DNA of 64,000 nucleotides from a virus (IMGVR_UViG_3300024261_000015:18711-82710); one strand, 5' to 3'; shown: positions 6,184-38,836, counted from the first letter of the stretch. Numbers and translations: made by a program. The notes: a model not told the origin generated them from the letters alone.

Positions 6184-7476
6184 GTGGCTTACAAATTTCA
6201 AGATTCAATTCAAAGGGGTATCATTTATCTGGCAAAATCTGACGAGGCTTTCCTCTTGCAGATTATGCCAATGGTCAAGGACGAGTACTTCGAGTTCCCG
6301 TCCCACCAAAAGATGTATACCGTCATCACCAATTTCTTCCTACAATACAAGAAGCTCCCAACGGACGACCAGCTTCTAGAAGAAACCAAGTCTACTTTAA
6401 CCTCTAATGAGTTATTCGGAGATTACCGAGACGAGTTAGGGGCTATTAATGGGCTTGATGAAAAATCTATTGATAACCAGGAGTTCTATCTTGATAAGGT
6501 AGAGGAGTTTGCTAAGGAGCAGGCTGTTAAGGATGCTATTCTTAAATCCGTTGACCACCTAAAGAAAAAGAATTTTGGAGCTATTGAAGAGGAGGTTAGG
6601 AATGCGTTTTCTGTTAATAGAAACGTTGACCTAGGAACCGATTACTTTACCGATGTTAAAGAAAGGTGGGAGCGTCTAAATAATGCCGCTATCGTTCCTA
6701 AGTTCCGTACCCCTTTCGAGAGTATTAACGAGGCTCTTGAGGGCGGTCTTGCACATAAAGAGATGGCTATGGTTGTAGCCCCCCCAGGGGTAGGTAAGTC
6801 CTTGTTCTTGGCAAATCAAGCTGCCCGTTCTGTATTGGATGGGCATAATGTTCTGTACATCTCTCTTGAAATGGCAGAGGATAGAGTTGCTCAAAGATTG
6901 GATAGTATCTTTACGAGAATTCAGCAAAAGGAATTGGCGAATCGTGTAGACGACATTGAAGAACGGTTGGATACTATTTCAAAGCAGTGGGAGGAACGAG
7001 GTCGTCTTGTTATTAAAGAGTTTCCCTGCAAGAGGCTTTCTGTTACTGGACTACGAGCTTACCTCAACCAGTTAAAGAACTATGAAGATTTTACTCCTGA
7101 TGTAATTGTAATGGATTACCTTGAGTTGATGAAGACGGAGAAAGACATGGCGGAGTACGCAGGGCAAGAACGCCTCGCACAAGAACTTCGTGGGTGTGCT
7201 AGTGAGTACGAATGTCTTGTTTGGACTGCAACCCAAACGAATCGAGAAGGTAAAAAGGTCAGCATTATTACAGACTCGGAGCTTGCTGATTCGTATGGAA
7301 AAATCCGAGTTTGCGATTTAGTCTTTTCAATTAACCAAACCGAACAGGAATTCGATGAGGGTCTAGCTAGACTCTACCTTATGAAGTCTCGTAATGGTCG
7401 GGCAAGATTCATTACCCCCATCGCTATTGATTATACTAGACTAGTAATAACCCAAACCACATCAAATGACACCTAA
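6184..7476 (+). CDS. dnaB: DnaB-like replicative helicase (T4 gp41-like)
   Basis: Walker A APPGVGKS; YISLEM; VMDYLELM; TATQTNR; KSRNG. Confidence 0.93.
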   Translation: MAYKFQDSIQRGIIYLAKSDEAFLLQIMPMVKDEYFEFPSHQKMYTVITNFFLQYKKLPTDDQLLEETKSTLTSNELFGDYRDELGAINGLDEKSIDNQEFYLDKVEEFAKEQAVKDAILKSVDHLKKKNFGAIEEEVRNAFSVNRNVDLGTDYFTDVKERWERLNNAAIVPKFRTPFESINEALEGGLAHKEMAMVVAPPGVGKSLFLANQAARSVLDGHNVLYISLEMAEDRVAQRLDSIFTRIQQKELANRVDDIEERLDTISKQWEERGRLVIKEFPCKRLSVTGLRAYLNQLKNYEDFTPDVIVMDYLELMKTEKDMAEYAGQERLAQELRGCASEYECLVWTATQTNREGKKVSIITDSELADSYGKIRVCDLVFSINQTEQEFDEGLARLYLMKSRNGRARFITPIAIDYTRLVITQTTSNDT

Positions 7477-7810
7477 ATTCCCTAAGCTAGAACATCCTAT
7501 GGTTGTTTATACTGGCATCAAAACATTTACTATTAAGCAACAAGGTCTTCTTAAGGATAACCTTTATGGTTGTGTTGATTTCCCTAAATGCCTTCTTACG
7601 ATTGACCCCAATCAATGCCCTGAAGATTACAAAGGAACTCTACTTCATGAAATTTGCCATATAGGTTTTGATTGTTATGGGCTAGGAGATGATGATGAGA
7701 TGCCTACACTAGGTAATGAGTACTTAACAACTGTAACTTCAAATATGATACAGCAATTTGCAGGGTTAAACCCTGAACTATTCACCTTTATTTTTAGTCC
7801 TCATGAATGA
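7466..7810 (+). CDS. small HExxH metallopeptidase-like phage protein
   Basis: LYG...TLLHEICH...NE motif. Confidence 0.55.
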   Translation: MTPKFPKLEHPMVVYTGIKTFTIKQQGLLKDNLYGCVDFPKCLLTIDPNQCPEDYKGTLLHEICHIGFDCYGLGDDDEMPTLGNEYLTTVTSNMIQQFAGLNPELFTFIFSPHE

Positions 7811-8255
7811 TATTCAAACCACGTATCACAGCCTCGAAACTTCGTATTTGGATATAACTAAAAAGTATCTCAATATCAATGAGCATAGCGTAGAGCAGGC
7901 ACTTCTTACTCATACAGGAGTATATGCATTTTTTGGCGCGGTTCTTGCTTACGCCAAACGGGAGATGGAGAACTTTGGGTTTAAGCGTGACCGTGAAGAG
8001 GCTAGGGTTAAAGAGGAAAGACGCCAAGAGTTTATAGGGGAGGGTAAGAAAGCTACCGACAGGGCTTTAGACTCCTACGTTATTACCTGCGAATCAGTAG
8101 CCAAAGCACAGCTTGCCTACCAAGAAGCATCGCACAAGTATTACTTAGCGAAAAACATCCTTAACTCCCTTGACCATCAGAAGGATATGCTAGTCCAAAT
8201 ATCTGCTAATAAACGAGCAGAATCCAAATTAATTGGGGATAATTACACCAGTTAG
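7803..8255 (+). CDS. UvsY-like recombination mediator
   Basis: helical 150-aa protein, KATD...LDSY, C-terminal KDMLVQISANKR; sits between helicase and SSB. Confidence 0.6.
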   Translation: MNDIQTTYHSLETSYLDITKKYLNINEHSVEQALLTHTGVYAFFGAVLAYAKREMENFGFKRDREEARVKEERRQEFIGEGKKATDRALDSYVITCESVAKAQLAYQEASHKYYLAKNILNSLDHQKDMLVQISANKRAESKLIGDNYTS

Positions 8256-9090: not shown

Positions 9091-10338
9091 ATGAAAAAAG
9101 ACAAGTTGAAGATTTTAGCTTGTCCTGCAAACGAGGGAGGATGCGCGTATTATCGTGTCATCCTCCCTTGTAATAAATTGCAGGAGTTGCACTCTGATGA
9201 GGTTGAAGTCCGTATGGATATGAACCCTCTAGGATGGGATAAAGAAGCTATGCAAGCTAACCAAGATGGTAAGCCTGTTATTTTAAAGGATTGGACTCCT
9301 GAAAATATTGAATGGGCAGACGTAGTTTTCCATCAGAACATTCATAACTTCGGAGGTAATTACACTTTGGAGTTGATGCACCGCGCAGCGCTTGCAGGTA
9401 AGTTAACGCATTACGATAATGATGACTTGCTTACTGATTTGTATGAAGGTCATAGGTTGTTTGGCGCTTATAAAGATAATAAACTCGCAGACCTAACTAA
9501 GCGAATTTATGGTATGGTAGATATTGTATCAGTTACCCAGAGAAAGTTTGCGGAAAGGATAGCTGAGCATGTTGGTCGTGCTTTGGTTATTATTAAAAAC
9601 GCAATCGACTTTAACCTGCCTGCATGGAATGAACTTAAGTTACCCCCGCCTAGAAAGAAGCTAACTAGGATAGGATGGGTTGGAGGTATTCACCATGAAG
9701 AGGATGTTAAGGAGTTCCCTGGAGTAGCAATGGCTGTAAACGCTAGAGCAGGTCCTGAGAATGTACATTGGGGTTGGTATGGTCGTCCTCCTATGCCTGT
9801 CAATAAGGAGACGGGTAAGCCTGAGCCTGACTGGCAACAAGATGTGTGGGATAATTATCAAAATATGTTGAGTCATGGTATTAGACATCACAATTTTCAA
9901 GTGTATGGAGCCCTACCTGCTGAGAATTATGGTAAGATGTACACTAACATTGATATCGCTATAGCCCCCCTTCAAATGAATAACTTCAATGACTCAAAAT
10001 CTGAAATTAAGGTTGCTGAGTGTGGTAGGTATGGCGTACCTCTCGTAGCTTCTAATGTAGGGTGCTATGACGAGACTATCTTTAATGGTCATACAGGGTA
10101 TCTTATTGATTCCGATAACCCTAAAAAGGACTGGGTTAGGTACCTTACCAAATGTATTAAGGACCCTAAACATACACGTGAGATGGGCCAGAACCTTAAA
10201 AAGGTAGTCGATAAGCATTTTGATATCAACAAAAATGTATACGGAAGAATTGAACTTTATAATGAGATTATAAAGGCCAAAGAAGGTACGCTTAAACATA
10301 AACAAGAAGATGCAGGTACAGACGATGGAAACAGTTAG
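9091..10338 (+). CDS. glycosyltransferase, GT-B/GT4-like
   Basis: GGCAYYRV; YDNDDLL; IGWVGG; DIAIAPL..NNFNDSKSEIKVAE. Confidence 0.88.
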   Translation: MKKDKLKILACPANEGGCAYYRVILPCNKLQELHSDEVEVRMDMNPLGWDKEAMQANQDGKPVILKDWTPENIEWADVVFHQNIHNFGGNYTLELMHRAALAGKLTHYDNDDLLTDLYEGHRLFGAYKDNKLADLTKRIYGMVDIVSVTQRKFAERIAEHVGRALVIIKNAIDFNLPAWNELKLPPPRKKLTRIGWVGGIHHEEDVKEFPGVAMAVNARAGPENVHWGWYGRPPMPVNKETGKPEPDWQQDVWDNYQNMLSHGIRHHNFQVYGALPAENYGKMYTNIDIAIAPLQMNNFNDSKSEIKVAECGRYGVPLVASNVGCYDETIFNGHTGYLIDSDNPKKDWVRYLTKCIKDPKHTREMGQNLKKVVDKHFDINKNVYGRIELYNEIIKAKEGTLKHKQEDAGTDDGNS

Positions 10339-22896: not shown

Positions 22897-22929
22897 GCCC
22901 TAAGTCCTTGCTGTGTAACGACTTAGGGC
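22897..22929. repeat. palindromic 13-7-13 site (outlying copy of the array site)
   Basis: GCCCTAAGTCCTT-GCTGTGT-AACGACTTAGGGC. Confidence 0.85.
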
Positions 22930-22967
22930 AAATGTTCGTTTTTACTCGATTTCTTACACCTAGGCTA

Positions 22968-22995
22968 TTGACATTGGAGGAGATTATGTTAAAAT
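22968..22995 (+). promoter_or_regulatory. sigma70-type promoter of the MoxR operon
   Basis: TTGACA-N16-TAAAAT with TG extended -10. Confidence 0.7.
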
Positions 22996-23054: not shown

Positions 23055-23864
23055 ATGTTCGTAATTGACGAAACTAAAAAAGAAATGCTTTCGACTCTAA
23101 TTGAGTCGGGCAAAAACTGTTTACTTACAGGGGCAACAGGGTGTGGCAAAACCACACTTTGCCTGGAAGTAGCAACCTCACTAGGACTGAATCCAGTTGT
23201 AATTAACATGGGTTCCACACAGGACGCTAGGACTTCTCTTATCGGCTATCATGTTTTGGAGGACGGTACGACCCGATTCCAAACCTCGGACTTTATTAAA
23301 GCCATTCAGACTCCTAATACGCTCATTATTCTTGATGAACTTTCCAGGGCTTCGGATGATGCGTTTAATATCATTTTTCCATTGTTGGATTTCCGTAGGG
23401 ACATTCGTGTTGAGGAACTTGGTGGTTCTGGGGAAACCATTACGGTAGAACCCTCGGTGCGTTTCGTTGCTACTGCAAATATCGGGCTGGACTATTCTTC
23501 TGCGCGTTCACTAGACCGTGCTTTGAAGGACCGTTTTATTCCTTTTCACCTTGATTACATTAAGGGAAAGGAACTTTCCAAGTACATTACTCATCTTTTC
23601 GGGGGTGAGGTTTCTAAGAAATCGAAGCCTCTTGTTCAGGTTTATGATTACTCTCACCAACAGTACAAGGATAGCAAAATCTCTTCGCAGATTTCAACTC
23701 GTATGGTTTTGGAGTGCGTTCCTCTTATGGATAAGTTCTCTCTCAAAGACATTCTTAACAATGTCCTGCTTTCTATGTACGAGGAAGATTCTTGCAGCGT
23801 TATCAATGATGCTAACATCATTCGTGAGTATGCCGATTCGCTTGGTATGTTTGAGGTAAACTGA
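23055..23864 (+). CDS. MoxR/CbbQ/CobS-like AAA+ ATPase
   Basis: GATGCGKT; IILDELSRA; FVATAN; LDRALKDRF; ISTR. Confidence 0.9.
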   Translation: MFVIDETKKEMLSTLIESGKNCLLTGATGCGKTTLCLEVATSLGLNPVVINMGSTQDARTSLIGYHVLEDGTTRFQTSDFIKAIQTPNTLIILDELSRASDDAFNIIFPLLDFRRDIRVEELGGSGETITVEPSVRFVATANIGLDYSSARSLDRALKDRFIPFHLDYIKGKELSKYITHLFGGEVSKKSKPLVQVYDYSHQQYKDSKISSQISTRMVLECVPLMDKFSLKDILNNVLLSMYEEDSCSVINDANIIREYADSLGMFEVN

Positions 23865-30356: not shown

Positions 30357-30693
30357 CATTGTTTGTTCCCTTTTAGTTTGATGTTTATCAGATGGACAGT
30401 CTTAGTATCCCTGTTGTGGGGGTGTTAAGGCTGTTTTTTTGTTTCTTATTTCTTATAAGCTATACCCCTCACTAGGGTATTAAATCTCATTAGTAGCTAA
30501 AAAAACAAGGATTAGTAAGAGTTTGGTGGCATAAGACTTGAATTAGATACGACATACGAGCGATTATTCGATATTTATGGCGCATTACAACCCTACTTTC
30601 ATACTTACAATGCTAGTATTGGTAAAAGTCAAGTCCCAATTTTGGGCTCAGACAGAGAAAGTCAAACTACGCCCCCCCACATAGGGGCGAAGT

Positions 30694-30726
30694 AAAAAAA
30701 AAGAGAGGTAGCATAAGCCACCTCTC
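30694..30726 (-). terminator. intrinsic terminator for minus-strand transcripts
   Basis: GAGAGGTGGC-TTAT-GCTACCTCTC followed by a T run on the minus strand. Confidence 0.75.
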
Positions 30727-31018
30727 ACTAAGAAAAGTCAAACCCCCATTTTAACCCCATGAAATCCCCTCAGAAGGAAAAGTCAAGTGCGTGCGCCTTA
30801 CAGCTCACAGGAGGGGGTTTCTATCTATGCACCCCTTATACAAAAATCACTAAGAAAAGTCAAGTTTGGATTTTTCACACTCGTAAACATGCACGAAACA
30901 CACATTAAACTGGAAGCAAAATCTGCTCGTGGGTCGAACGAGAAAAGTCAAGTGGCAGCTCCAGCGGGCAGCCCCTACGCTAGGGAGGTAACTTGTATCA
31001 CATACAACTATGTAAAGT

Positions 31019-31096: not shown

Positions 31097-31468
31097 ACCG
31101 AAGACTTTAATTTTTATAACCTAATTGTAAGAGAGCGAAAAAGCGTTTAGTTTTTATACGGGCTTGCTTTTCCGCCCTCCAAGAGTACCGATGAGCTGCA
31201 ATAGCCTTTCGATGCTACCATTATACCATGACGCATTTGAATCACCTAATGTTTTAGGTAATAGTGGAAAAAATACCATTACTTTGGGAAATCCGCCAAA
31301 AGAGTATGAAATTTCACCGTGCGTAACCCCTTTAGTACCAAGGACTTAGGTCGATTGGGGCCCCGCGTGCGGGGTCGTGTCAAGTAAGAACCCCCCTACT
31401 AACCACTAGGGCTTTCAGGGGCGCTCTGAGCCTAAACCCTATTTTACCTCGCTCAGACGAGGGGAGGC

Positions 31469-31813
31469 TTACGCCTCCAGACCTATCTCACTAGCAAGGG
31501 TTTCAGCCAGAGCCTTCCGCGTAGAGCGCAAAGCCTCAATTTGGATATTCGCCTCCTTGCGCTTCGTGGTAGCTTCGGAGAGGCGTTCTTGCCACTCCAC
31601 TACCCGTGCCTTGAAGTTCTCAATCTTATCCTCTCCCTCTGAAGCCCAACGGTTGAACTTCAGCATGGATACCTGAACGGCTTTGATTTTCTCATCAAGA
31701 GCCTGAATCTCAGGGGATTCGTTGATTTGCGCTTTGTTCTCCTTGGCGATGAGAGCGGCGAGTTGTGCTTGCGTTTCCGCAATACGGTCAGAGACGGGAC
31801 GATGCTTAGTCAT
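31469..31813 (-). CDS. coiled-coil protein
   Basis: helical heptads; TTGACT-N17-TATAAT promoter at about 31872-31900. Confidence 0.7.
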   Translation of the reverse strand: MTKHRPVSDRIAETQAQLAALIAKENKAQINESPEIQALDEKIKAVQVSMLKFNRWASEGEDKIENFKARVVEWQERLSEATTKRKEANIQIEALRSTRKALAETLASEIGLEA

Positions 31814-32121
31814 AATTTGTTACCTAGTAAAATGTTAGTGAGAGAGGGGGTTGCCCTCGTTGTATGGTATCATTATACCATAAGGAAAGAGAAAGTCAAG
31901 CCCTAAAGTGGGGAAACTTTCAAGAAAAGTCAAGTCCCTGGGTTCACTCCACAGAACCACAGGATATAGGTGGAGAATACCACCGTGAACAGGCAACCGC
32001 CTGCGAGATAGAAAAAGAATTGGGCTCTTTCGAGCGGGTCGTAGTGAGACATATGCTTATTATACTGTAAGAAAAGTCAAAAGTCAAGCCCTATCTGAGG
32101 AAAATGCTCGTCTAGGTTGAG

Positions 32122-32204
32122 TGGAGGAGGTGCGGGGATTCGAACCCCGTTCCACGCAAGTTCCCGCAAGGGGCGTTCCCACGTGTCGATACCAGTACAC
32201 CCCC
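32122..32204 (-). ncRNA. tmRNA-like RNA consisting only of the tRNA-like domain (83 nt)
   Basis: 5' GGGGGTGTACTGGTATCGAC (ssrA-type start, no D stem); G3-U70 pair; CACGTGGG/CTTGCGTG helix; CGGGG-TTCGAAT-CCCCG; CACCTCC-T-CCA. Confidence 0.75.
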
Positions 32205-32212
32205 CGAAGGGT

Positions 32213-32449
32213 CTAGTTCCCTTGCGTTGCCTCGTAAGGTTTACGTTTAGAGCCAGCGTGGTTACCGTAGTGCTTTCCGCAAGCCATAACGGGCAAGCGT
32301 CTACGCACGGAGCGATAAGCATCTAGCGTCCTCAAGGCATAGGCGGGAGTAAACAGCCTGGAATTATGAGCCATCGCAAAATGACTCCCGAGAACGCGGG
32401 AAATGAGGTTGAGAGTGTTGTTTCTGAGAGTGTTGTGATTTTGTTTCAT
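32213..32449 (-). CDS. leaderless basic 78-aa ORF, probably cotranscribed with the mini-tmRNA
   Basis: TTGCGT-N17-TATAAT-N6-ATG. Confidence 0.55.
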   Translation of the reverse strand: MKQNHNTLRNNTLNLISRVLGSHFAMAHNSRLFTPAYALRTLDAYRSVRRRLPVMACGKHYGNHAGSKRKPYEATQGN

Positions 32450-32599
32450 GCTTACATTATACCCGCTCCCGTGCCCAGACGCAAGTACTAAATAAAGAAA
32501 ATGCGTGAAAAAACGTAAGTCGTGTAGTACCAAGGACTTACGACGAATCGGGGCCCCCGCCCCTATTTTATATTTATATTTTGAGGATTTTATTATTAT

Positions 32600-32788
32600 T
32601 CAACCCCTGAATATTTCTTTATCTTCGACCTCTTCAATTGTACATTCTTCCAAACAATCCATGCACCAATAATAATCATCCATCCATAACTTAGCTAAAC
32701 TTTGCGAATTAGGTTTGTTTATCGGGACCATAACGCTTCCTTGTTGGTGAATATCTCTTCCACCGCAATCTGAACATATTGTAATCAT
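32600..32788 (-). CDS. small CxxC...CxxC zinc-finger protein
   Basis: CSDC...CMDC; AAGGAG RBS. Confidence 0.65.
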   Translation of the reverse strand: MITICSDCGGRDIHQQGSVMVPINKPNSQSLAKLWMDDYYWCMDCLEECTIEEVEDKEIFRG

Positions 32789-32807
32789 TTTATCTCCTTT
32801 TATTATT

Positions 32808-33482
32808 TTAGTGGGTTGCAAATCTAACTGTTTTTGTGGTCATCCAGCATAATCCACATGAGGCACAATCTTTGACTTTTCCTGTCTGTTCTGGACAATC
32901 AAAGGACTTGCCCTCAAATGATTCATCGGCGGCATAACTCCAATTTTCTTCGAATGGTCCTTGAGTCGGAACTAATTTTCCATCGTATGCTTTATTCCCC
33001 GAATGACGAATAACGCAACGGTCAGGATATTCATTATTCAGCCTCCAAATAGCGTGTGCAATATTATCTCCCTTGCGAGCGGTATAACCAAACAAGCAAA
33101 GTTTCGAGTGCTTTTCTAGCATCTCTCGCCAGAACTGAATATAATCTACGGAATAAAAATCACCTAGAACATGTAATCGAATGACGATGCCATGTTTATG
33201 TTTCGCGAGCAATGTTTCAATTTCACGCTCCAAAATTATATCTATATTGTGAGGCTTGAATCGGTGCGCGAATGGCATATTATTCCCATAGCAGTCATTC
33301 CAATGGTGACAAGTTGTGGGGCAAGTTGTTCTTTCTTCCAGCGTGAGAGAATATAATCTTTTCCCTTTCCACTTCTTTGAACTAACCACGAACCCTAACT
33401 TTTTATTTCCGCTCCCTTTTTTGAGGGTCTTACCTTCTACGGGTGTGCGGAGCGACTTCTGGAATATGCTTTGTACTTTCAT
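32808..33482 (-). CDS. phage Gp88-like cysteine-rich protein
   Basis: TCPTTC....CY; RLHVLGDF; FGYT; CPEQ.....CASCGLCW. Confidence 0.75.
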   Translation of the reverse strand: MKVQSIFQKSLRTPVEGKTLKKGSGNKKLGFVVSSKKWKGKRLYSLTLEERTTCPTTCHHWNDCYGNNMPFAHRFKPHNIDIILEREIETLLAKHKHGIVIRLHVLGDFYSVDYIQFWREMLEKHSKLCLFGYTARKGDNIAHAIWRLNNEYPDRCVIRHSGNKAYDGKLVPTQGPFEENWSYAADESFEGKSFDCPEQTGKVKDCASCGLCWMTTKTVRFATH

Positions 33483-33775
33483 TCCGCCATTGTAAACTAT
33501 GGGGGGTGCCGTGTCAATAGCCTAGATGGGTAAAATGCGTGAAAATGTGAGAAAAACGTAAGTCGTGCAGTACCAAGGACTTACGACGGCGCGGGGCCCC
33601 GCGCCTGCCATTTTGACAGGGTTTGGGTCACTATGTTCTGCCAAGATGGCAAAAAGCGGAGAAAATCAGCTTTTTAGAACCCCTTTTTTTTGAACATGCG
33701 CTTATGTCAAAATCTACTGTGTTTTGGTAGCACTTTTTCCCGAATTGCACCATATGGTACACACGGGCCTTATTC

Positions 33776-33994
33776 CTAGAAAATAACGGGATGCTCCTCC
33801 AAATATACTAGCTCGCTATGCCATTCAGGGTGATACACTTCCAAAGCATCCCGCGCATCCAAGGGGGTAAGCCCCTCGTTGTACAGGTCAGCAAGAATAT
33901 CTTTCAAGTGAGGACTCTCATCATAATTCATTAGAGACAACTCATTCAGCCACTCACCGAAGGTGGCTTCAAACAAATCAAATTGAGGTTTCAT
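33776..33994 (-). CDS. hypothetical acidic protein
   Basis: TAATG-coupled to upstream peptide gene. Confidence 0.6.
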   Translation of the reverse strand: MKPQFDLFEATFGEWLNELSLMNYDESPHLKDILADLYNEGLTPLDARDALEVYHPEWHSELVYLEEHPVIF

Positions 33995-34110
33995 TAGAGA
34001 GTCCCCGTAAGGGCTTGGATGATGATGCCGAGGGCAGAGCCAAGGCATATGAGGATGAAGCTTCCACCGATGAAGATGGGAAGGTCAAGGTTGTACAGGT
34101 TATTTTTCAT
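33994..34110 (-). CDS. 38-aa membrane peptide (paralog of 35615..35734)
   Basis: MKNNLYNLDLPIFIGGSFILICLGSALGIIIQALTGTL; leaderless start after TAAAAT. Confidence 0.65.
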   Translation of the reverse strand: MKNNLYNLDLPIFIGGSFILICLGSALGIIIQALTGTL

Positions 34111-34240
34111 GTCCCCATTTTAATAAACCATACCCCGAATAGCTAGAACTAAATCGAATAAATTGGCCGTTGTAACCCGTTGCTGTATAAGGACTTACGT
34201 GTTTCGCGGCCCCCGCCAGAATTTTTGTCAAGGTGAAAGG

Positions 34241-34491
34241 TGGAGAGGCTAGAGCGGTGGGGATTACTTTATTACCCACACCAAGAAGCGTATTTGAACG
34301 GCATACGCAGCCTGTAAAACTGTAGTTTGGTTCTTCTTGGCGTTACTTGCGTTTGGGTTCTCTGGCACCTTAGCCCGTCAACGGGGAACAACCCCCTCTC
34401 CCGCACGCATTTATCCGAGGATACCCCCCAGTTATCGGGGGCGTTACCTGACGCTCTCATCGCAAGCCTTGCAAAGCTCGCGATGCTCTCC
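34241..34491 (-). ncRNA. candidate ~250-nt multibranched structured RNA
   Basis: nested stems: 34242-47/34486-91, 34251-56/34452-57, 34257-61/34275-79, 34281-88/34333-40, 34348-57/34400-09, 34425-29/34437-41, hairpin 34458-85. Confidence 0.6.
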
Positions 34492-34557
34492 GTGATTTTG
34501 TTGTGAAAGAGGGGGAGCGTTTATCGCCCGCTCCCCAAGGCGATGAAAAACAACCAG

Positions 34558-34953
34558 TTAGTTGTGCTTGTCGCCCATTGCTTCGCTGAACTCCCGTGCG
34601 GTCATCATCCCCTTCATTCGGTCATCATCGTCTTGGAGTAGCTCGAAACTATCCCGATAGGCTTTGGGCATATCGTAGGAGTTTAGAATACCTCTCCAAT
34701 TTGAAGACCCGCCCGTTTGGATTGCTTCGTGCTGCATTCCAACCAAGCAGTTGATAACGAGTGCATCGTGTACCTCGATAGCGTTATGGTCAAAATCGTC
34801 CTTGATTGAATACCCTTTGAAGAAAGTGGCTTCGATGCATCTCTTCACCTCGTTAGAGGTTTGCATCCCCATGTAGGATAGGCACTCGTTAGACAGCAAA
34901 GCCCTATCGTCTAGCGCGGTGAATGAGCTATGCTGGATAATGGATATGTCCAT
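34558..34953 (-). CDS. hypothetical protein
   Basis: ATG just after the upstream stop; GAGGA RBS. Confidence 0.6.
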   Translation of the reverse strand: MDISIIQHSSFTALDDRALLSNECLSYMGMQTSNEVKRCIEATFFKGYSIKDDFDHNAIEVHDALVINCLVGMQHEAIQTGGSSNWRGILNSYDMPKAYRDSFELLQDDDDRMKGMMTAREFSEAMGDKHN

Positions 34954-34954
34954 G

Positions 34955-35188
34955 CTAGTTATCCTCACCCGCGCCAAACACCTCGTCTTGGCAGGTCTGG
35001 CACATCGCTGAAATGGTGTACTCCTTTTGGGAGAGGGCATCACGGAACTCGGAAGCCTCACCCGAACAGGTGGCGCAAGACCCTTCGGCAACCGCGCCCA
35101 CACGGGAAACGCCCGTAAGATTGGAAAGCATCTGCTCGATGCCTTGGTGCTTGAAGGTAGCTTCAAGAGAGTATTGGTTGTTTTTCAT
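34955..35188 (-). CDS. small zinc-binding phage protein
   Basis: CATC...FRDALSQKEYTISAMCQTCQD; leaderless promoter TTGACT-N17-TATAAT. Confidence 0.75.
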   Translation of the reverse strand: MKNNQYSLEATFKHQGIEQMLSNLTGVSRVGAVAEGSCATCSGEASEFRDALSQKEYTISAMCQTCQDEVFGAGEDN

Positions 35189-35242
35189 GTTTGTATTATA
35201 CCCGATGAGGGTCGTGAAGTCAAGTGTTTTATCGGAAAAAGT

Positions 35243-35371
35243 TTAGTCGCACGGTCCTAACATACCAGACAGCATAGCGACCACTTTGAAGGCGTACAGG
35301 TAAACCACGCAGGACACGGCAGCCGAAGCGCCGATGATGGCGATGGTCCAGTTAGTGTTATTATCTTTCAT
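35243..35371 (-). CDS. 42-aa membrane peptide
   Basis: MKDNNTNWTIAIIGASAAVSCVVYLYAFKVVAMLSGMLGPCD; TTGACA-N17-TATAAT-N6-ATG. Confidence 0.6.
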   Translation of the reverse strand: MKDNNTNWTIAIIGASAAVSCVVYLYAFKVVAMLSGMLGPCD

Positions 35372-35402
35372 GTTTACATTATACCCGATGAGGGCTGAGG
35401 TG

Positions 35403-35618
35403 TCAAGCACCATCTTGGATATTATCTTGAAGAAATTTCATCATCTCCAGCGTGTCCTTGTAGCTCATGGGAGGCATAGGGTCAGGGTTCACATAATGAG
35501 GGTTCGGGTCAAGCCTTCCCCCCGTCATTTTCCACCAATCGTACCAATCCTTTTCATCCCAATAAGCGGTAGGACCAGAGGGCACGGGGAACTTTGCATT
35601 TTCAGGTAGTTTTTTCAT
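35403..35618 (-). CDS. hypothetical Pro/Trp-rich protein
   Basis: ATGA-coupled to upstream peptide gene. Confidence 0.6.
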   Translation of the reverse strand: MKKLPENAKFPVPSGPTAYWDEKDWYDWWKMTGGRLDPNPHYVNPDPMPPMSYKDTLEMMKFLQDNIQDGA

Positions 35619-35734
35619 GAGAGCGTACCAAGAATGGCTTCGATGATGCTAACGACAGCGCCGAAAGCGCAAACGAACATGAAGCCCCCGATGATGAAGA
35701 CGGGAAGGGTTAGGTTGTACTGGATATTTTTCAT
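35615..35734 (-). CDS. 39-aa membrane peptide (paralog of 33994..34110)
   Basis: MKNIQYNLTLPVFIIGGFMFVCAFGAVVSIIEAILGTLS; leaderless promoter. Confidence 0.65.
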   Translation of the reverse strand: MKNIQYNLTLPVFIIGGFMFVCAFGAVVSIIEAILGTLS

Positions 35735-35919
35735 GTTATCATTATACTCGCTGCGTGTAGGGATAGCAAGAACTAAATTGAAGAAATTGGCCGTTGTAAC
35801 CCGTTGCTCTTCAAGGACTTACGACGGCGCGGGGCCCCGCGCCTAAAAAATTGCAAGCATAAAATACGGGGTTGGCGGTTTGTTTCCGTGGTTAGCCGCC
35901 GAACACGTTTTTTATAGCA

Positions 35920-36114
35920 TCACAGCTTGGTCACGGTGAGCGAATCGCGCAGGGTCTTATTATAAAACTCCCCCGTGCTTTCCGCGCCTTCCCATTCCGA
36001 GAACGTCTTACGGTCCATCGGTGCAATGTCGTAGCAATTCCCGTTGGTGAGGGTCATAGTAGCTGAGCTACTGGAGTCGTTATACTGAATAGAGTCAATC
36101 CAAGAACTGGTCAT
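35920..36114 (-). CDS. KTSC-domain protein
   Basis: SSWIDSIQY...NG..Y...AESTGEFYNKTLR. Confidence 0.75.
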   Translation of the reverse strand: MTSSWIDSIQYNDSSSSATMTLTNGNCYDIAPMDRKTFSEWEGAESTGEFYNKTLRDSLTVTKL

Positions 36115-36262
36115 ATCTTTATACCCCTTTGAAGGGTTTGGGTTTACGTCAAAAAGTGTGGAAATCGAGTTTTTCTGACAGGGACTCGAAACCCTACGGA
36201 CGTTCTTGTGTGGGTGCCGTCCGTAACCCTAGCGCGTATTATATCAAAAGGACAACGCCCTG

Positions 36263-36532
36263 TCAACCATAATACCCGTAACTTTCATCCTCTCCCCAGC
36301 CTATCGAGGTAAACGCGCCCTCATCATCGAAACCGTTATCCCCCCCGTTCCGTTCTTGCTCCATCGCCTCTTCCGTGGCAATCATGCCCGTAGCGCATTC
36401 GCAGAAATCCATGTCCCCGTCATCGTCATAGAATGTGCCGCTATCGCAGCAGGTCATGCAATCGGGACGGTCTTCCATTTCAAAGGCGTTGGAAGTAGGG
36501 TAAGCGTGGTCAAAGGTGCTGGGCTTGTTCAT
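36263..36532 (-). CDS. small acidic protein with CxxC motif
   Basis: CMTCCDSG...FCECATG; leaderless promoter. Confidence 0.65.
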   Translation of the reverse strand: MNKPSTFDHAYPTSNAFEMEDRPDCMTCCDSGTFYDDDGDMDFCECATGMIATEEAMEQERNGGDNGFDDEGAFTSIGWGEDESYGYYG

Positions 36533-36576
36533 GTTGTACATTATACGAGGTAAGGGGTTGGATTGCAAGGACTATT

Positions 36577-36804
36577 TCAGTTTTTTTCTTGGGAGTTCAC
36601 GGCGTGCTGCACAGCCATCACGAATCGGTGCGGGTTGAAAGCGTCGCTGCTCCCTTTGCACAGTTCTTGAAATCTGCGAATCACCTGTTCGCCTTGCTTG
36701 CCATCGCTCAAGCCCTCTTCCCATATTTCATTTTTTTCTATGTCGAGGATAATAAGGGCGCAGGTTTCGGCTAAGGCTTGGAAGTGTTGCTTGGTCATTT
36801 TCAT
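36577..36804 (-). CDS. hypothetical phage protein (MTK.HF..LA...FNP.RF family)
   Basis: leaderless promoter; motif typical of small phage proteins. Confidence 0.7.
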   Translation of the reverse strand: MKMTKQHFQALAETCALIILDIEKNEIWEEGLSDGKQGEQVIRRFQELCKGSSDAFNPHRFVMAVQHAVNSQEKN

Positions 36805-36923
36805 GTTGTACATTATACTCGCTGCGTGTAGGGATAGCAAGAACTAAATTGAAGAAATTGGCCGTTGTAACTCGTTGCTGTGTAAGGACTTACGGCGACG
36901 CGGGGCCCGCGCCCCGAATTTTA

Positions 36924-37040
36924 TCAACCCCAATGACCAAAGATTACCCAATATAAAAATGCATAGAATAGGGCTGAAATAGCAAACGAGGAACACACTC
37001 CTAGGAATACGCTTCCATCGCGTTCTCTGGGCTCATGCAT
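36924..37040 (-). CDS. 38-aa membrane peptide
   Basis: GAGGAG RBS; hydrophobic C-terminus. Confidence 0.5.
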   Translation of the reverse strand: MHEPRERDGSVFLGVCSSFAISALFYAFLYWVIFGHWG

Positions 37041-37362
37041 GGTAATACTCCTCGGTTGCAGTGCATAGGTTCTCGAAATCGTTCCAACGCTTGTCGCTAA
37101 CTGCTTGAATAATAGCCGCAAGACGGTTGACAGGAACCCACCCCGCAACATCATCTGGAAGGACTACGAAATCATCCATTGAGTTCATCAAAGCCACTTC
37201 CATTGTGCTAGTGGCTTTTTCACCTCCAGGTGCAGTCCCGTTCCCGCTATTGTCGCAATGGTGCCTGCTGCCCGTACCGATGCTGAGCTTGAAGCCCTCA
37301 TCAAAGTATATCTGAAAGCCTTCGCTTCTAGTCTTGATAGACATTATCAACTGGCGATTCAT
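37033..37362 (-). CDS. hypothetical phage protein
   Basis: GFQIYFDEGFKLSI...HHCDN...EVA...DDVAGWV. Confidence 0.7.
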   Translation of the reverse strand: MNRQLIMSIKTRSEGFQIYFDEGFKLSIGTGSRHHCDNSGNGTAPGGEKATSTMEVALMNSMDDFVVLPDDVAGWVPVNRLAAIIQAVSDKRWNDFENLCTATEEYYHA

Positions 37363-37586
37363 ACGGAAACCCCCAACTTGGTAAGCGTGTAGCGTGTAAC
37401 CGTCTCAGCTTCGCCAGCAGTGATTTCGCACCTCTTGGCAAGCCCGAGAGCAACCCGATGGAAAGCCTGTTGAGGCGTGTAACCCTCTTCTTGGGTAAGG
37501 GTATAATCATCTACCAATCCAGGAAGGAGGACAGAGATGCCAGCATTGACCGCATCGCGTACGGCTTGTGTATCGTTGTTTATCAT
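37359..37586 (-). CDS. hypothetical protein
   Basis: TTGCAT-N17-TATAAT-N6-ATG. Confidence 0.6.
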   Translation of the reverse strand: MINNDTQAVRDAVNAGISVLLPGLVDDYTLTQEEGYTPQQAFHRVALGLAKRCEITAGEAETVTRYTLTKLGVSV

Positions 37587-37741
37587 ATTATCATTATACT
37601 CGATGGAGTGTGTGAATGCAACACCTATTTTGGTGAAATGCGTAAGTTTTCGTAAGTCGTTAGTCTGTAGGGGGTTGCGACTGAAATATAAGCCAGCCGC
37701 CGCAGAACCCGAGTCCAAGCATATTCAAGGCAAGTAGAACA

Positions 37742-37888
37742 TCAAGCATTTTGGCTCTGCTCCAAGAACTTGAGGGAAGCGGCTTCTAGCGTGTCCTCGC
37801 TTGAGTTCATCATGAGTTCAGCGAGTAGGAAGTTCAGGAAGAGGGGAAATTCCAAAGCCTGTGTGTAGTAACTGGTTTCTTTTATCAT
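37742..37888 (-). CDS. hypothetical small protein
   Basis: TTGCAA-N17-TATAAT-N6-ATG. Confidence 0.6.
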   Translation of the reverse strand: MIKETSYYTQALEFPLFLNFLLAELMMNSSEDTLEAASLKFLEQSQNA

Positions 37889-37925
37889 GTTTACATTATA
37901 CCCGATGAGGTGAGACATTGCAAGC

Positions 37926-38141
37926 TTAAAATCCCCAAAATGAGGATTTCTTTTCACCTGTCCCTGCGCTGATAAGGTGACGCTTGGCAGCTAGAATGTC
38001 CCAATCTGCCTTGTCCATCCATTCAATTACATCATAGGCGATAACACGCTTGTCCATGTCAGAGAGGACAGCCGTTGGCGTGGGAGGGAATAGGTATGCC
38101 GTGCAGAGCATACCAAGTAGAAAGGCGATAACTGATTTCAT
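37926..38141 (-). CDS. small exported or membrane protein
   Basis: signal-like N-terminus; leaderless promoter. Confidence 0.6.
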   Translation of the reverse strand: MKSVIAFLLGMLCTAYLFPPTPTAVLSDMDKRVIAYDVIEWMDKADWDILAAKRHLISAGTGEKKSSFWGF

Positions 38142-38589
38142 GTATAGCATTATACCCGCTTAGGTGAGGCATTGCAAGGACTTTCTGGACTTTTTTCCAG
38201 TATTTTTCAGTCGCTTGCTTGCGGTAGCCTTTGGGTCCGCCGTTGTGGATTCGGGCACACTTCTCAGCGTTGAACTTCTTAGGGTTCGTCCACGCTTCTT
38301 TGGCGTAGCGCGTCATGTAAGCGTCCACAATGCTCTTGGCATACGCACGGTCATAACAGTCCTTATATGAGCCACCGATGCCAGAGCGTTCTACAGCGTC
38401 CGTCCAGTATATTTTCCAGATTTGTAAGCAGCCTATGGCGTTCCCATTATCCCCTACAGCATCATCTTTGCCGTTGGACTCGACCTGAATCAGAGCGTCC
38501 AGCAGAGTGTCCTGTTGAGGTGTGTACTGTGCCATGACAGGAGTGGATAGAACTAACAGCGTTACAAGTGATTTCATCATATTTCTCAT
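38059..38589 (-). CDS. secreted lysozyme-fold enzyme (i-type/destabilase-like)
   Basis: signal peptide; ALIQVES; GCLQIWKIYW.DA; ARIHNGGPKG...YWKKV. Confidence 0.8.
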   Translation of the reverse strand: MRNMMKSLVTLLVLSTPVMAQYTPQQDTLLDALIQVESNGKDDAVGDNGNAIGCLQIWKIYWTDAVERSGIGGSYKDCYDRAYAKSIVDAYMTRYAKEAWTNPKKFNAEKCARIHNGGPKGYRKQATEKYWKKVQKVLAMPHLSGYNAIHEISYRLSTWYALHGIPIPSHANGCPL

Positions 38590-38836
38590 TATATTATATT
38601 ATCGACCATATTGCAAGCACTACTTGAGAAAAATGCAGTCTTTTTACCAGAATATATGGCATTCGTCGTAAGTCGTTGGTATGTAAGGACTTAGGGCGTT
38701 TTTGGGCCTTACTCTGCCATTATGGCAGGTCACGAGACTTTTTGCCTCACAGCGGAAAACTCCACACTAAGGGTCCCATCCGAGAGCTGGGAATAGGCAT
38801 TATATCCGAAGGTTCATGCTTTCTCTATAGGGACTC

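Follow-up and report, generated by a model that had tools for sequence, protein, structure and literature searches.

The window analysed here is the whole 64,000-nt stretch of the viral record IMGVR_UViG_3300024261_000015 (18711-82710), and positions are counted from its first letter. It carries a palindrome with the consensus cGTAAGTCCTT-N7-AACGRSTTACg (in full, CG-TAAGTCCTT-G-N5-C-AACGACTTA-CG) in nine copies: seven good ones, a degenerate one and an outlier. A pattern search allowing up to three mismatches gave 13 matches, which collapse to eight places because the motif is near-palindromic. Shuffled sequences gave a mean of 0.02 matches, and none of 100 shuffles reached 13. With zero or one mismatch, the minus-strand reading placed copies at 31323, 32515, 33558, 34172, 35796, 36867 and 38668, and the plus-strand reading gave one place, the outlier at 22900. 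The eighth copy of the array, at 37652-37678 with the spacer AGTCTGT, was detected by reading and not by the pattern search; its promoter-side arm is good and its other arm is degenerate (6/10). The eight array copies listed in a preliminary description of this DNA are therefore real, and the spacers and spacing given there (0.6-1.6 kb) agree with the spacer sequences and the 614-1624 bp measured between copies. The outlier, previously put at 22897-22929, was recovered as a plus-strand palindrome at 22900-22926. A further degenerate copy proposed at 30514-30542 had no match at three mismatches or fewer and reads poorly by eye. The whole 82.7-kb record was scanned, and no further copy was found outside the window. 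The array holds eight cassettes in 7.4 kb. Each palindrome has inverted arms of 9-11 bp and a centre of 5-7 bp, and at least five kinds of spacer occur among the nine copies. The AACGRSTTAC arm faces the downstream promoter in all nine, the plus-strand outlier among them, so that their polarity is uniform.

The array cassettes lie on the minus strand. Reading and a consensus promoter scan bore out the junction anatomy described earlier, which runs from a gene end through a GC hairpin and the palindrome to a sigma70-type promoter and, usually, a leaderless ATG. A GC hairpin precedes six of the eight array copies, and downstream lies an A/T-rich stretch with T-tracts and -35 and -10 boxes. Cassette 1 (31270-31374) follows a Pistol ribozyme match (31386-31462) and consists of a GC hairpin (31361-31374) and a palindrome (31323-31349) with the promoter-side arm AAGGGGTTAC; its downstream promoter-like matches are all weak. 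In cassette 2 (32456-32563), the hairpin (32550-32563) and palindrome (32515-32541) are followed by a 30-nt T-tract stretch, a -35 box TTGCGT (32484-32479) and a -10 box TATAAT (32461-32456), with the ATG 6 nt past the -10 box. Cassette 3 (33489-33605) has the hairpin GGCGCGGGGCCCCGCGCC (33588-33605), a palindrome at 33558-33584 and, after 40 nt, TTGACA (33517-33512) and TACAAT (33494-33489), a predicted promoter that would drive a GP88-like gene (33482-32808). Cassette 4 (34117-34217) contains a GC element (34206-34217), a palindrome (34172-34198) and, after 26 nt, TAGCTA (34145-34140) and TAAAAT (34122-34117), and a small membrane protein starts at the ATG at 34111. A paralogue of that protein is opened by the leaderless ATG of cassette 5 (35741-35843), where the hairpin (35826-35843) and palindrome (35796-35822) precede, again by 26 nt, TTGCTA (35769-35764) and TATAAT (35746-35741). 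Cassette 6 (36812-36916) is near-identical to cassette 5 from the palindrome through the -10 box, with a hairpin at 36901-36916, a palindrome at 36867-36893 and, after 26 nt, TTGCTA (36840-36835), TATAAT (36817-36812) and a leaderless ATG.

The degenerate cassette 7 (37593-37678) has no GC hairpin, and its palindrome (37652-37678, GCAACCCCCT-ACAGACT-AACGACTTAC) overlaps the end of a small ORF. By eye, its promoter is TTGCAT (37621-37616) and TATAAT (37598-37593), with an ATG at 37586; the scan gave a tied alternative, TTCACA/GATAAT, 5 nt further on. In cassette 8 (38588-38694), the palindrome (38668-38694) is preceded by a CTGCCATAATGGCAG hairpin instead of a GC-only hairpin and is followed after 51 nt by TTGCAA (38616-38611) and TATAAT (38593-38588), a predicted promoter for a lysozyme-like gene (38589-38059). 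The outlier cassette (22900-22995, plus strand) stands at the head of a plus-strand operon starting at 23055. Its palindrome, CTAAGTCCTT-GCTGTGT-AACGACTTAG (22900-22926), is separated by 41 nt from TTGACA (22968-22973), with TAAAAT at 22990-22995.

The promoter scan found 29 promoter-like sites where shuffled sequences gave 12.5 +/- 3.4. Of the 15 best sites, 14 were on the minus strand. In most cassettes the ATG comes 6-7 nt past the -10 box, so there is no room for a Shine-Dalgarno sequence and the genes are leaderless. At least eight strong promoters lie within modules and have no palindrome, which means that the palindrome is not needed for promoter activity as such. Since the scan showed no U tract on the sense strand of the GC hairpins, these can be called terminators only putatively. 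Distances from site to -35 box in the window are 26, 26, 26, 30, 30 (by eye), 40, 41 and 51 bp.

The coupling to promoters was also seen in other phages. Among 405 oriented phage sites, a strong promoter lay no more than 130 nt downstream in 105, compared to 34 diverging on the other side. The sites are helically phased to these promoters and sit on a fixed face of the helix: the -35 box clusters about 30, 41-42, 51-52 and 62 bp away, a periodicity of 10.5-11 bp. Fourier power at period 11 was 21.5 (n=82 after de-replication) and was reached by none of 5000 random sets, with the promoters called by a simple ad hoc rule and de-replication at 80%, which leaves related cassettes not fully independent. 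In the window, the three copies of an identical cassette at 26 bp are about 4 bp off the main phase.

The motif is shared across unrelated phages and host elements and is common to more than 118 viral contigs. Counting detectable proteins, G000 shares two with the motif-bearing phage G001 (a lysozyme-like protein and RNR only) and three with the motif-bearing phage G002 (all structural or replication proteins). The only proteins that G001 and G002 have in common with Stenotrophomonas phage DLP6 are DenV and PhoH. DLP6 carries a half-site form of the motif and has a gammaproteobacterium as its host. Of the genome matches listed, 44 of 80 were Planctomycetota, and in a Planctomycetota sample 55 of 301 genomes matched the motif, compared to nine for a backwards control. 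The host is probably a marine planctomycete, an assignment made purely from motif sharing. Twelve of 125 host sites abut a tRNA gene, and a tyrosine integrase adjoins the palindrome in five of the seven tRNA-abutting loci scanned. In genome G309, the palindrome lies within a 30-kb island, close to its border and next to an att repeat of 28 nt. This repeat spans the end of the tRNA and overlaps the palindrome edge by about 4 nt; no palindrome is present at the other end of the island. G309, G310 and G312 each have one good copy, and in G008 the palindrome is central in repeats of about 150 bp flanked by inverted ends.

Base preferences were taken from 578 unique copies in 2.2 Mb of phage loci. 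In this pattern-selected set, information peaks at T1A2A3, T8T9, A17A18 and T23T24A25 (1.5-2.0 bits), with 0.8-1.4 bits in the two N4 blocks. The strongest positions, TAA-N4-TT...AA-N4-TTA, can be written YAA-N4-TT(G)...(C)AA-N4-TTR, a mirrored IHF core. The IHF consensus is given as WATCAANNNNTTR in the part of PMC8942017 that concerns it. All eight good window copies carry CAA-N4-TTR in one arm or both, and the full IHF 13-mer is matched by the DLP6 units (AAATCAACGACTTA) and seldom by window copies. HU/IHF-family genes were found in all 26 Planctomycetota genomes searched and in none of five phage records. The IHF-alpha cut-off was reached in none of the 26 genomes (best 77 bits compared to 120), so IHF in the strict sense is not demonstrated in the presumed hosts. 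Since the motif-bearing phages compared share few proteins and no HU/IHF gene was found in the five phage records, the binding factor is probably not lineage-specific.

One possible explanation is that the palindrome acts as an RNA or single-stranded DNA hairpin, serving in a two-hairpin terminator, in processing or in stabilising the 3' end of the upstream transcript. The palindrome does come directly after the GC hairpin at gene ends, copies 32515 and 33558 fold well (z about -3) and are the only ones followed by a T tract (GTTTTT), and some IMG/VR loci have a promoter just upstream, so that the element would be transcribed. However, positions 7/19 are C.C in 315 of the 578 copies, and changes at 4/22 are mostly uncompensated (G.G 75, C.C 62, A.C 59 compared to C-G 19, A-T 2), as are those at 5/21 and 6/20, in a set whose selection by pattern (no more than 3/18 mismatches) under-samples double compensatory changes. 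What is conserved is sequence and not pairing, including a flanking CG..CG that was absent from the search pattern. The palindrome is best read as a double-stranded site, as its arm changes break pairing and the hairpin is not under selection. Folding z-scores of six window copies ranged from -0.7 to -3.8, and three copies (35796, 36867 and 38668) folded no better than shuffles (z -0.7 to -1.2). We regard a hairpin role as highly improbable. It is also very unlikely that the palindromes are crossover sites of a tyrosine recombinase moving modules, the integron- or pdif-like shuffling that the preliminary description had favoured. Two inverted arms around a 6-8 bp centre fit such a site in geometry alone, cassettes 3 and 5 are identical for 32 nt, over the hairpin and left arm, and differ from the spacer on, and Planctomycetota palindromes adjoin tyrosine integrase genes at tRNA genes. 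Modules are also in different order among relatives: L191, L185-L190 and L192 have the same genes in another order. This part of the cassette picture held, but site-specific recombination as its cause was not supported. A search of the 82.7-kb record (76% complete) for Phage_integrase (PF00589) and Resolvase (PF00239) gave no match at E<=1, so no tyrosine or serine recombinase was found there, and a host enzyme or the missing 24% may supply one. All copies have one orientation tied to transcription, their spacers are mixed, helical phasing to promoters has no role in a recombination site, and the motif occurs in unrelated phages and host elements. The palindrome in G309 lies beside the att identity block and not within it, and G309, G310 and G312 hold a single good copy each. 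Breakpoints in the 7-bp spacers were sought in Logan contigs from four runs; in three seawater runs the joints lay 0-17 nt into coding sequences and none was in a spacer, which is weak evidence given the short sides of the joints.

The idea of an operator for a dimeric protein, held as the alternative in the preliminary description, is supported by the lack of covariation and by the phasing to the -35 box. Such a protein could be encoded by the phage, as a repressor shutting off early genes or as an activator: a small, fast-evolving regulator reading CGTAAGTCSTT half-sites, with the protein or the cassette spreading horizontally among phages and integrative elements. Conservation of the N4 blocks and the flanking CG goes beyond what E. 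coli IHF needs, so a more sequence-specific regulator fits this feature at least as well. The presence of CAACGACTTACG also in DLP6, with a host of another phylum, is easier to explain by a mobile protein-site pair than by host IHF. The sites stand in phase ahead of promoters, the close relative L191 has a sigma70 region-4-like early protein, and most of the small early ORFs here belong to no known family. However, the few proteins in which G000 overlaps G001 and G002 (structural, replication, lysozyme-like and RNR) include no shared candidate, a scan of 60 window ORFs detected no HTH or other DNA-binding domain, and no sigma region 4 was found in the record. Single copies at tRNA-integrase junctions and in short host repeats have no obvious regulator near, and a repressor site centred, as here, about 75-110 bp before the start would be unusual. 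A phage-encoded regulator is thus rather unlikely.

The explanation we consider probable is that the palindrome is a docking site for a dimeric bending protein, probably supplied by the host and with the IHF/HU type as leading candidate, within PeSL-like terminator-promoter cassettes as predicted here. The assignment to the IHF/HU type, taken by itself, is plausible but tentative. Protein binding, the effect on transcription and the host are all things that we infer from sequence patterns. Each site would lie as duplex DNA, on a fixed helix face, between the GC hairpin closing one module and the A/T-tract and sigma70-type promoter opening the next. The bound and bent DNA would boost or insulate the early, mostly leaderless units, as IHF does at lambda pL and Mu Pe, both of which have IHF sites upstream. 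The hairpin-palindrome-promoter cassette is repeated in each genome, where its copies stay uniform, and would therefore provide portable homology at which modules come, go and change order. The ATG is where homology to L191 begins, and each genome has its own near-identical cassettes; among the relatives, no pair was close enough to map single events. The reordering probably reflects homologous exchange from one copy of the regulatory cassette to another, a mechanism also proposed for PeSLs. More speculatively, a single 29-bp symmetric site might serve a nucleoid protein of Planctomycetota, and possibly of other phyla, as a shared landing pad, adopted by unrelated lytic phages, tRNA-integrating islands and short dispersed repeats. 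If so, it would activate or insulate leaderless early promoters in the phages according to helix face. It would also supply the homology for exchanging promoter-linked early-gene cassettes, both within a phage and across otherwise unrelated ones, with no need of a dedicated recombinase.

Several known systems resemble this array in part. The palindromes have the inverted arms and short variable core of dif/pdif, loxP and integron attC sites, and modules with a few genes lie between them, but they differ in having no recombinase found, one orientation, mixed spacers and promoter phasing, and in the position of the G309 palindrome outside the crossover block. pdif modules are bounded by sites in alternating or opposite orientation, and all eight array copies here have the same orientation, so they were not classed as pdif modules. 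The element was likewise not classed as an RNA hairpin or intrinsic terminator, as changes do not preserve pairing and a T tract follows only two of the copies; Rfam gave no family match at the palindrome sites. The RIP/RIB elements of E. coli (IHF-containing BIMEs) and the Correia elements of Neisseria are intergenic, short and repeated, with inverted ends and a bending-protein site in the middle. The G008 repeats of about 150 bp are built likewise, but their sequence and phylum differ, and the phage sites have no flanking inverted ends. As for IHF sites, the best-conserved positions of the pattern-selected copies follow CAA-N4-TTR in both arms. The palindrome also precedes phage early promoters in helical register, adjoins an att core in an integrated island and is central in short dispersed repeats. 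Its place in the G309 island is that of an arm or bending site such as the IHF site H' of lambda attP. Unlike IHF sites, the palindrome is symmetric, with two mirrored cores whose TT/AA steps are 9 bp apart, and its N4 blocks (GTCC, CGAC) and flanking CG are conserved beyond the E. coli IHF consensus.

In DLP6, the section of PMC5349666 on its promoters reports 25 PHIRE-predicted 'phage promoters' motifs, of which 22 stand pairwise before gene clusters; the units read there as promoters are read here as a putative protein site. DLP6 has about 14 cassettes, in each of which two 25-bp units in tandem, ending CAACGACTTA(C/G)G, precede a GC stem-loop and a -35/-10 promoter, but only the promoter-side half is conserved and the units are direct repeats with a 25-bp period, ahead of the stem-loop. 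PeSL (promoter-early stem-loop) cassettes of T4-type phages were reportedly described by Arbiol in 2010. The passages of Comeau 2014 (PMC4122927) that define PeSLs also propose them as module exchange points in T4-type phages. Compared to PeSLs as defined in those passages, the cassettes here insert a conserved 29-bp palindrome between the stem-loop and the promoter, this palindrome is common far beyond one phage lineage, and most genes are leaderless where a PeSL has a Shine-Dalgarno sequence at its 3' end. On the same definition, both place an A/T-rich stretch between a stem-loop and a sigma70-type early promoter, and both occur in multiple copies in a hyperplastic early region where relatives differ by indels, replacements or displacements. 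Both also adjoin small unrelated ORFs that vary between relatives, and both have been proposed as exchange points.

The 82.7-kb virus record, of which the window is the final 64 kb, is rated 76% complete. It encodes a T4-like portal and terminase, a class I ribonucleotide reductase, a helicase and a primase, and the phage was present at near identity in 20 seawater metagenome runs. A pattern search of the window at ≤3 mismatches gave 13 matches in 8 places against 0.02 expected, which confirmed the repeated palindromes of the preliminary description. In the minus-strand reading, the motif is cGTAAGTCCTT-N7-AACGRSTTACg. Minus-strand copies were found at 31323, 32515, 33558, 34172, 35796, 36867 and 38668, and a copy with one degenerate arm was read by eye at 37652-37678 (minus). 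An outlier at 22900 has the same reading on the plus strand. A copy proposed near 30514 failed to match the motif, and the pattern search found none in the rest of the record outside the window. At most array copies the junction runs from a GC hairpin to the palindrome, then through 26-51 nt with phased T-tracts to a -35/-10 promoter, with the ATG 6-7 nt past the -10 box. The outlier has the same polarity toward its own promoter and operon, so polarity is tied to transcription and not to strand.

Several other features of this region were recorded. Between 31800 and 38600, the minus strand has at least 14 strong sigma70-type promoters; most have an ATG 6-7 nt past the -10 box, so their transcripts would be leaderless. 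About eight of these promoters are inside modules and have no palindrome. The GC hairpins at 32550-32563 and 36901-36916 scored as terminators on the plus (antisense) strand only in a consensus scan, and on the sense strand they are preceded by an A tract and lack a U tract downstream. Their role may be to block antisense transcription, or they may terminate transcription without a U tract. In the gap before tRNA-Ile, at 30600-31000 (minus), TTGACTTT(TC) boxes form a cluster that has no matching -10 boxes.

A profile was built from 578 unique copies out of 2.2 Mb of phage loci. CG was conserved on both flanks though it lay outside the search pattern, extending the consensus to a 29-bp dyad, CG-TAAGTCCTT-G-N5-C-AACGACTTA-CG. 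Such a dyad could act as a hairpin or as a duplex. In the pair table, the commonest state at positions 7/19 was C.C (315 of 578), and changes at 4/22, 5/21 and 6/20 were overwhelmingly uncompensated, a pairing test biased by the selection of copies at ≤3 mismatches, which disfavors double changes. Three of six window copies folded no better than shuffled sequence. Even with this bias, selection for a hairpin would not be expected to leave a conserved mismatch and conserved flanks that do not pair. We read the element as a predicted double-stranded DNA site with two half-sites, TAAGTSSTT, and its role as a candidate binding site for a protein on duplex DNA is quite probable.

The position of the palindrome relative to promoters was analyzed in 405 phage sites with clear orientation and full flanks. 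A strong promoter was found within 130 nt on the AACGACTTA side in 105 of them, and a diverging promoter on the opposite side in 34. Distances between the site and the beginning of the -35 box were quantized at 29-31, 40-43, 50-53 and 60-62 bp. For the 82 distances of ≤75 bp, Fourier power was 21.5 at period 11 (20.4 at period 10.5), which 0 of 5000 random sets matched; cassettes ≥80% identical had been removed, promoters were called by our own rule, and related cassettes are not fully independent. In the window the distances were 26 (three near-identical cassettes), 30, 30, 40, 41 and 51, where the 30 for copy 37652 was read by eye and the script gave a tied 35. Copy 31323 had a weak promoter only. 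Helical phasing typifies a protein that has to face RNA polymerase or bend DNA toward it, and would serve no purpose in a recombination site.

The preliminary description had suggested that the palindromes may be pdif- or integron-like recombinase sites, with an operator for a dimeric regulator as the alternative. Differences in module order among relatives, which a recombinase would produce, were found. Relatives fetched through their IscA-like and GP88-like genes had the same architecture (L128, L189-L192 and, with a variant arm, L188) and were not collinear. In L191, the closest, the mini-tmRNA module is upstream of the GP88 gene, while in the window it is downstream, and homologues of the window genes at 37906 and 35618 are adjacent. 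Each gene's homology with L191 begins at its ATG. The four cassettes of L191 are near-identical to one another and differ from those of the window, where cassettes 4-6 have one promoter module in common and cassettes 2-3 another. Since each genome has its own near-identical sets, the regulatory cassette is under concerted evolution within each genome. Contigs from three other seawater runs contained the joints 34094>35177, 34094>35366, 34111>35727 and 33994>37865. The first three fall 0-17 nt into coding sequences, just past leaderless promoters, and the 1.6-kb skip among them connects the two paralogous membrane-protein cassettes. None of the four joints lies in the palindrome center, where site-specific recombination would place breakpoints, and the joints at gene starts are only a hint, being seen in contigs with short sides (21-43 nt). 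Exchange end-points can fall in the palindrome, since cassettes 3 and 5 have an identical hairpin and left arm and differ from the spacer onward. Any homology-driven process would give such end-points at the best-conserved 11-mer.

Host chromosomes also bear on the recombinase reading. When one genome per prokaryote species was scanned, Planctomycetota made up 44 of 80 among the matches listed, and nine further listed loci came from one Latescibacterota contig; some short contigs were clearly phage DNA binned into MAGs. The motif matched at ≤3 of 22 positions in 55 of 301 sampled Planctomycetota genomes, compared to 9 of 301 for a backwards-read control (counted from the table). Five genomes checked in full had ~4 to 25 places each and the control had none. 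A tRNA gene was within 200 bp of 16 of 125 host sites, and 12 of the 125 were within 17 nt of a tRNA end, the 3' end in ten cases and the 5' end in two. Among ten neighbor ORFs scanned from seven tRNA-adjacent loci, five were tyrosine integrases (L240, L275, L258, L229, L313), and another such locus, L264, had a large terminase and a resolvase. The genomes G309, G310 and G312 have one good palindrome copy each. In G309, a 28-nt direct repeat with copies 30.4 kb apart takes in the tRNA 3' end and a 3-nt linker but no more than the outer ~4 nt of the palindrome, and the far end of the island has no palindrome, so the palindrome is an arm element beside the crossover block and not the crossover site. 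For the G310 island, a candidate second att-like repeat amounted to a 14-nt match only (E 0.008) and was discarded. With single copies in these three genomes, the G309 repeat beside the palindrome and the helical phasing, site-specific recombination was not supported. The operator alternative, a predicted site for a dimeric DNA-binding protein, was. The behavior of the cassettes matches the model of PeSL, the promoter-early stem-loop cassettes of T4-type phages (PMC4122927), better than a dedicated recombinase.

Palindromes were also found in dispersed repeats. In the host-side genome G008 they are central in ~150 bp repeats with inverted ends and occur in a second repeat family. On one Latescibacterota contig (5.6 Mb), at least 10 copies of a longer repeat have the exact palindrome TAAGTCCTTGAAAAACAACGACTTA followed immediately by a run of 12-20 C (L225-L228, L244, L246, L252, L260, L285, L287).

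Among phages, at least 118 IMG/VR stretches carried the motif among the matches listed in an exact-pattern scan. Most of those listed have the same flanks and a GC-rich neighbor, and many have two palindromes flanking a GC element, then a TTGACA/TATAAT promoter. The 112.8-kb phage record G001 has ~24 copies, all on one strand and all but two within a 10-kb stretch, paired exactly 50 bp apart upstream of promoters. Hardly any detectable protein is common to G000, another motif-bearing record, and either G001 or a third record, G002; therefore, the motif crosses phage lineages. Of 16 relatives' loci fetched by protein, 11 had no copy at ≤3 mismatches (L127, L129-L132, L185-L188, L193, L194), which is the only sense of "no copy" here, and L188 holds a variant, GTAAGTGTAGAATCSACAAGSACTTA, missed at that threshold. 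The portal was rejected as a clue to the host, being too distant at ~31% identity to Microcystis phage Mel-JY01 and Flavobacterium 'immuto' phages.

The Stenotrophomonas phage DLP6 has a related arrangement. Its genome paper lists terminators with TCAACGACTTAG before them and 25 PHIRE 'phage promoters', 22 of which are paired ahead of gene clusters (PMC5349666). We found ~14 cassettes in this genome, each with two tandem 25-bp units ending AAATCAACGACTTA(C/G)G, followed by a GC stem-loop running into the -35 box and then TATAAT. In the window the boxes are single and placed after the GC element. The DLP6 units retain the promoter-side half only, and the full palindrome has one match in the genome at ≤3 mismatches. 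DLP6 itself was the only genome in which BLAST with the DLP6 unit hit multiple places. Against cultured phages, the G001 double element gave GC-rich chance matches only, and megablast with the 8.4-kb stretch gave no match. DLP6 and G000 have T4 core genes in common, and the only proteins shared by G001 and G002 with DLP6 are DenV and PhoH, which were rejected as a shared regulator because they are not regulators.

Which protein might bind the palindrome was then considered. In the 578-copy profile, information peaks at T1A2A3, T8T9, A17A18 and T23T24A25, with dips in two 4-bp blocks between. The peaks read YAA-N4-TT(G)...(C)AA-N4-TTR, two mirrored cores of the consensus of IHF, a DNA-bending protein of the IHF/HU family, given as WATCAANNNNTTR in PMC8942017. 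The TT and AA steps of the palindrome are 9 bp apart. The two DNA kinks seen in the crystal structure of IHF bound to DNA have the same separation. IHF sites are known (lambda pL and H', Mu Pe, RIP and Correia elements) from each setting in which the palindrome was found: ahead of early promoters in phages, next to an att core and in the middle of short dispersed repeats. An HU/IHF protein was encoded in 26 of 26 sampled Planctomycetota genomes and in none of the five phage records examined, and the IHF-alpha cut-off was exceeded in 0 of the 26. However, compared to a plain IHF site, the N4 blocks and flanking CG are conserved here, even in DLP6, which would suit a more specific regulator. IHF/HU is a tentative candidate, with the odds somewhat against it. 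No sigma region 4 match was found in the window's record, and no Pfam or PHROGs DNA-binding domain among the ORFs scanned. In L191, a 170-aa protein with a sigma70 region-4 domain is encoded at 7440-7952 (plus), just past a palindrome cassette.

RNA elements were also seen beside the array. Contigs of X21, a marine-sediment metatranscriptome, covered 34236-34709 (minus) at a depth of ~1300-1350 against ~19 in neighboring parts, and parts of the stretch without coverage should not be taken as silent. One contig returns from 34709 to 34231, a step back of 479, and has 3 additional letters. An abundant ~480 nt RNA, circular or tandem, would fit these contigs. Rfam gave no match in 34150-34800 at E≤1. 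A Pistol ribozyme match at 31386-31462 (minus; 48.3 bits, gathering score 34.5) is directly upstream of cassette 1 and downstream of a coiled-coil-like gene (31469-31813). A tmRNA match at 32122-32204 (minus, 54.8 bits) spans model positions 1-374 in only 83 nt and, thus, is a tRNA-like domain that lacks the tag region. L191 has a copy of 90% identity at 9784-9881, on the opposite side of the GP88 gene.

To our knowledge, almost nothing is known of how infection starts in phages of planctomycetes and other uncultured marine bacteria. The conserved cis-signal described here recurs across hundreds of viral contigs, where it is in helical phase with strong promoters that are mostly leaderless. 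In phage genomes from metagenomes it marks both early regions and the boundaries of transcription units. Since it is common to phages and Planctomycetota chromosomes, it also hints at the host. The putative protein-DNA interaction is directly testable because DLP6 and its Stenotrophomonas host are cultured. The results also caution that a palindrome of arms plus spacer need not be a recombinase site. We found no description of the element in literature on the motif, planctomycete phage promoters, leaderless starts and phage isolates, and none in print except for the DLP6 'promoter' prediction. The nearest printed text was the terminator table and paired 'phage promoters' of the DLP6 paper; this comparison covers the running text of the DLP6 and PeSL papers, and the DLP6 logo and the PeSL alignments may alter the closeness. 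In our reading, the element is a PeSL-like regulatory cassette with a widely shared candidate docking site for a bending protein. Compared to the PeSL model (PMC4122927), the genes here are leaderless and a palindrome is added, and the idea of mobile regulatory cassettes is extended past the enterobacterial and vibrio T4-type phages.
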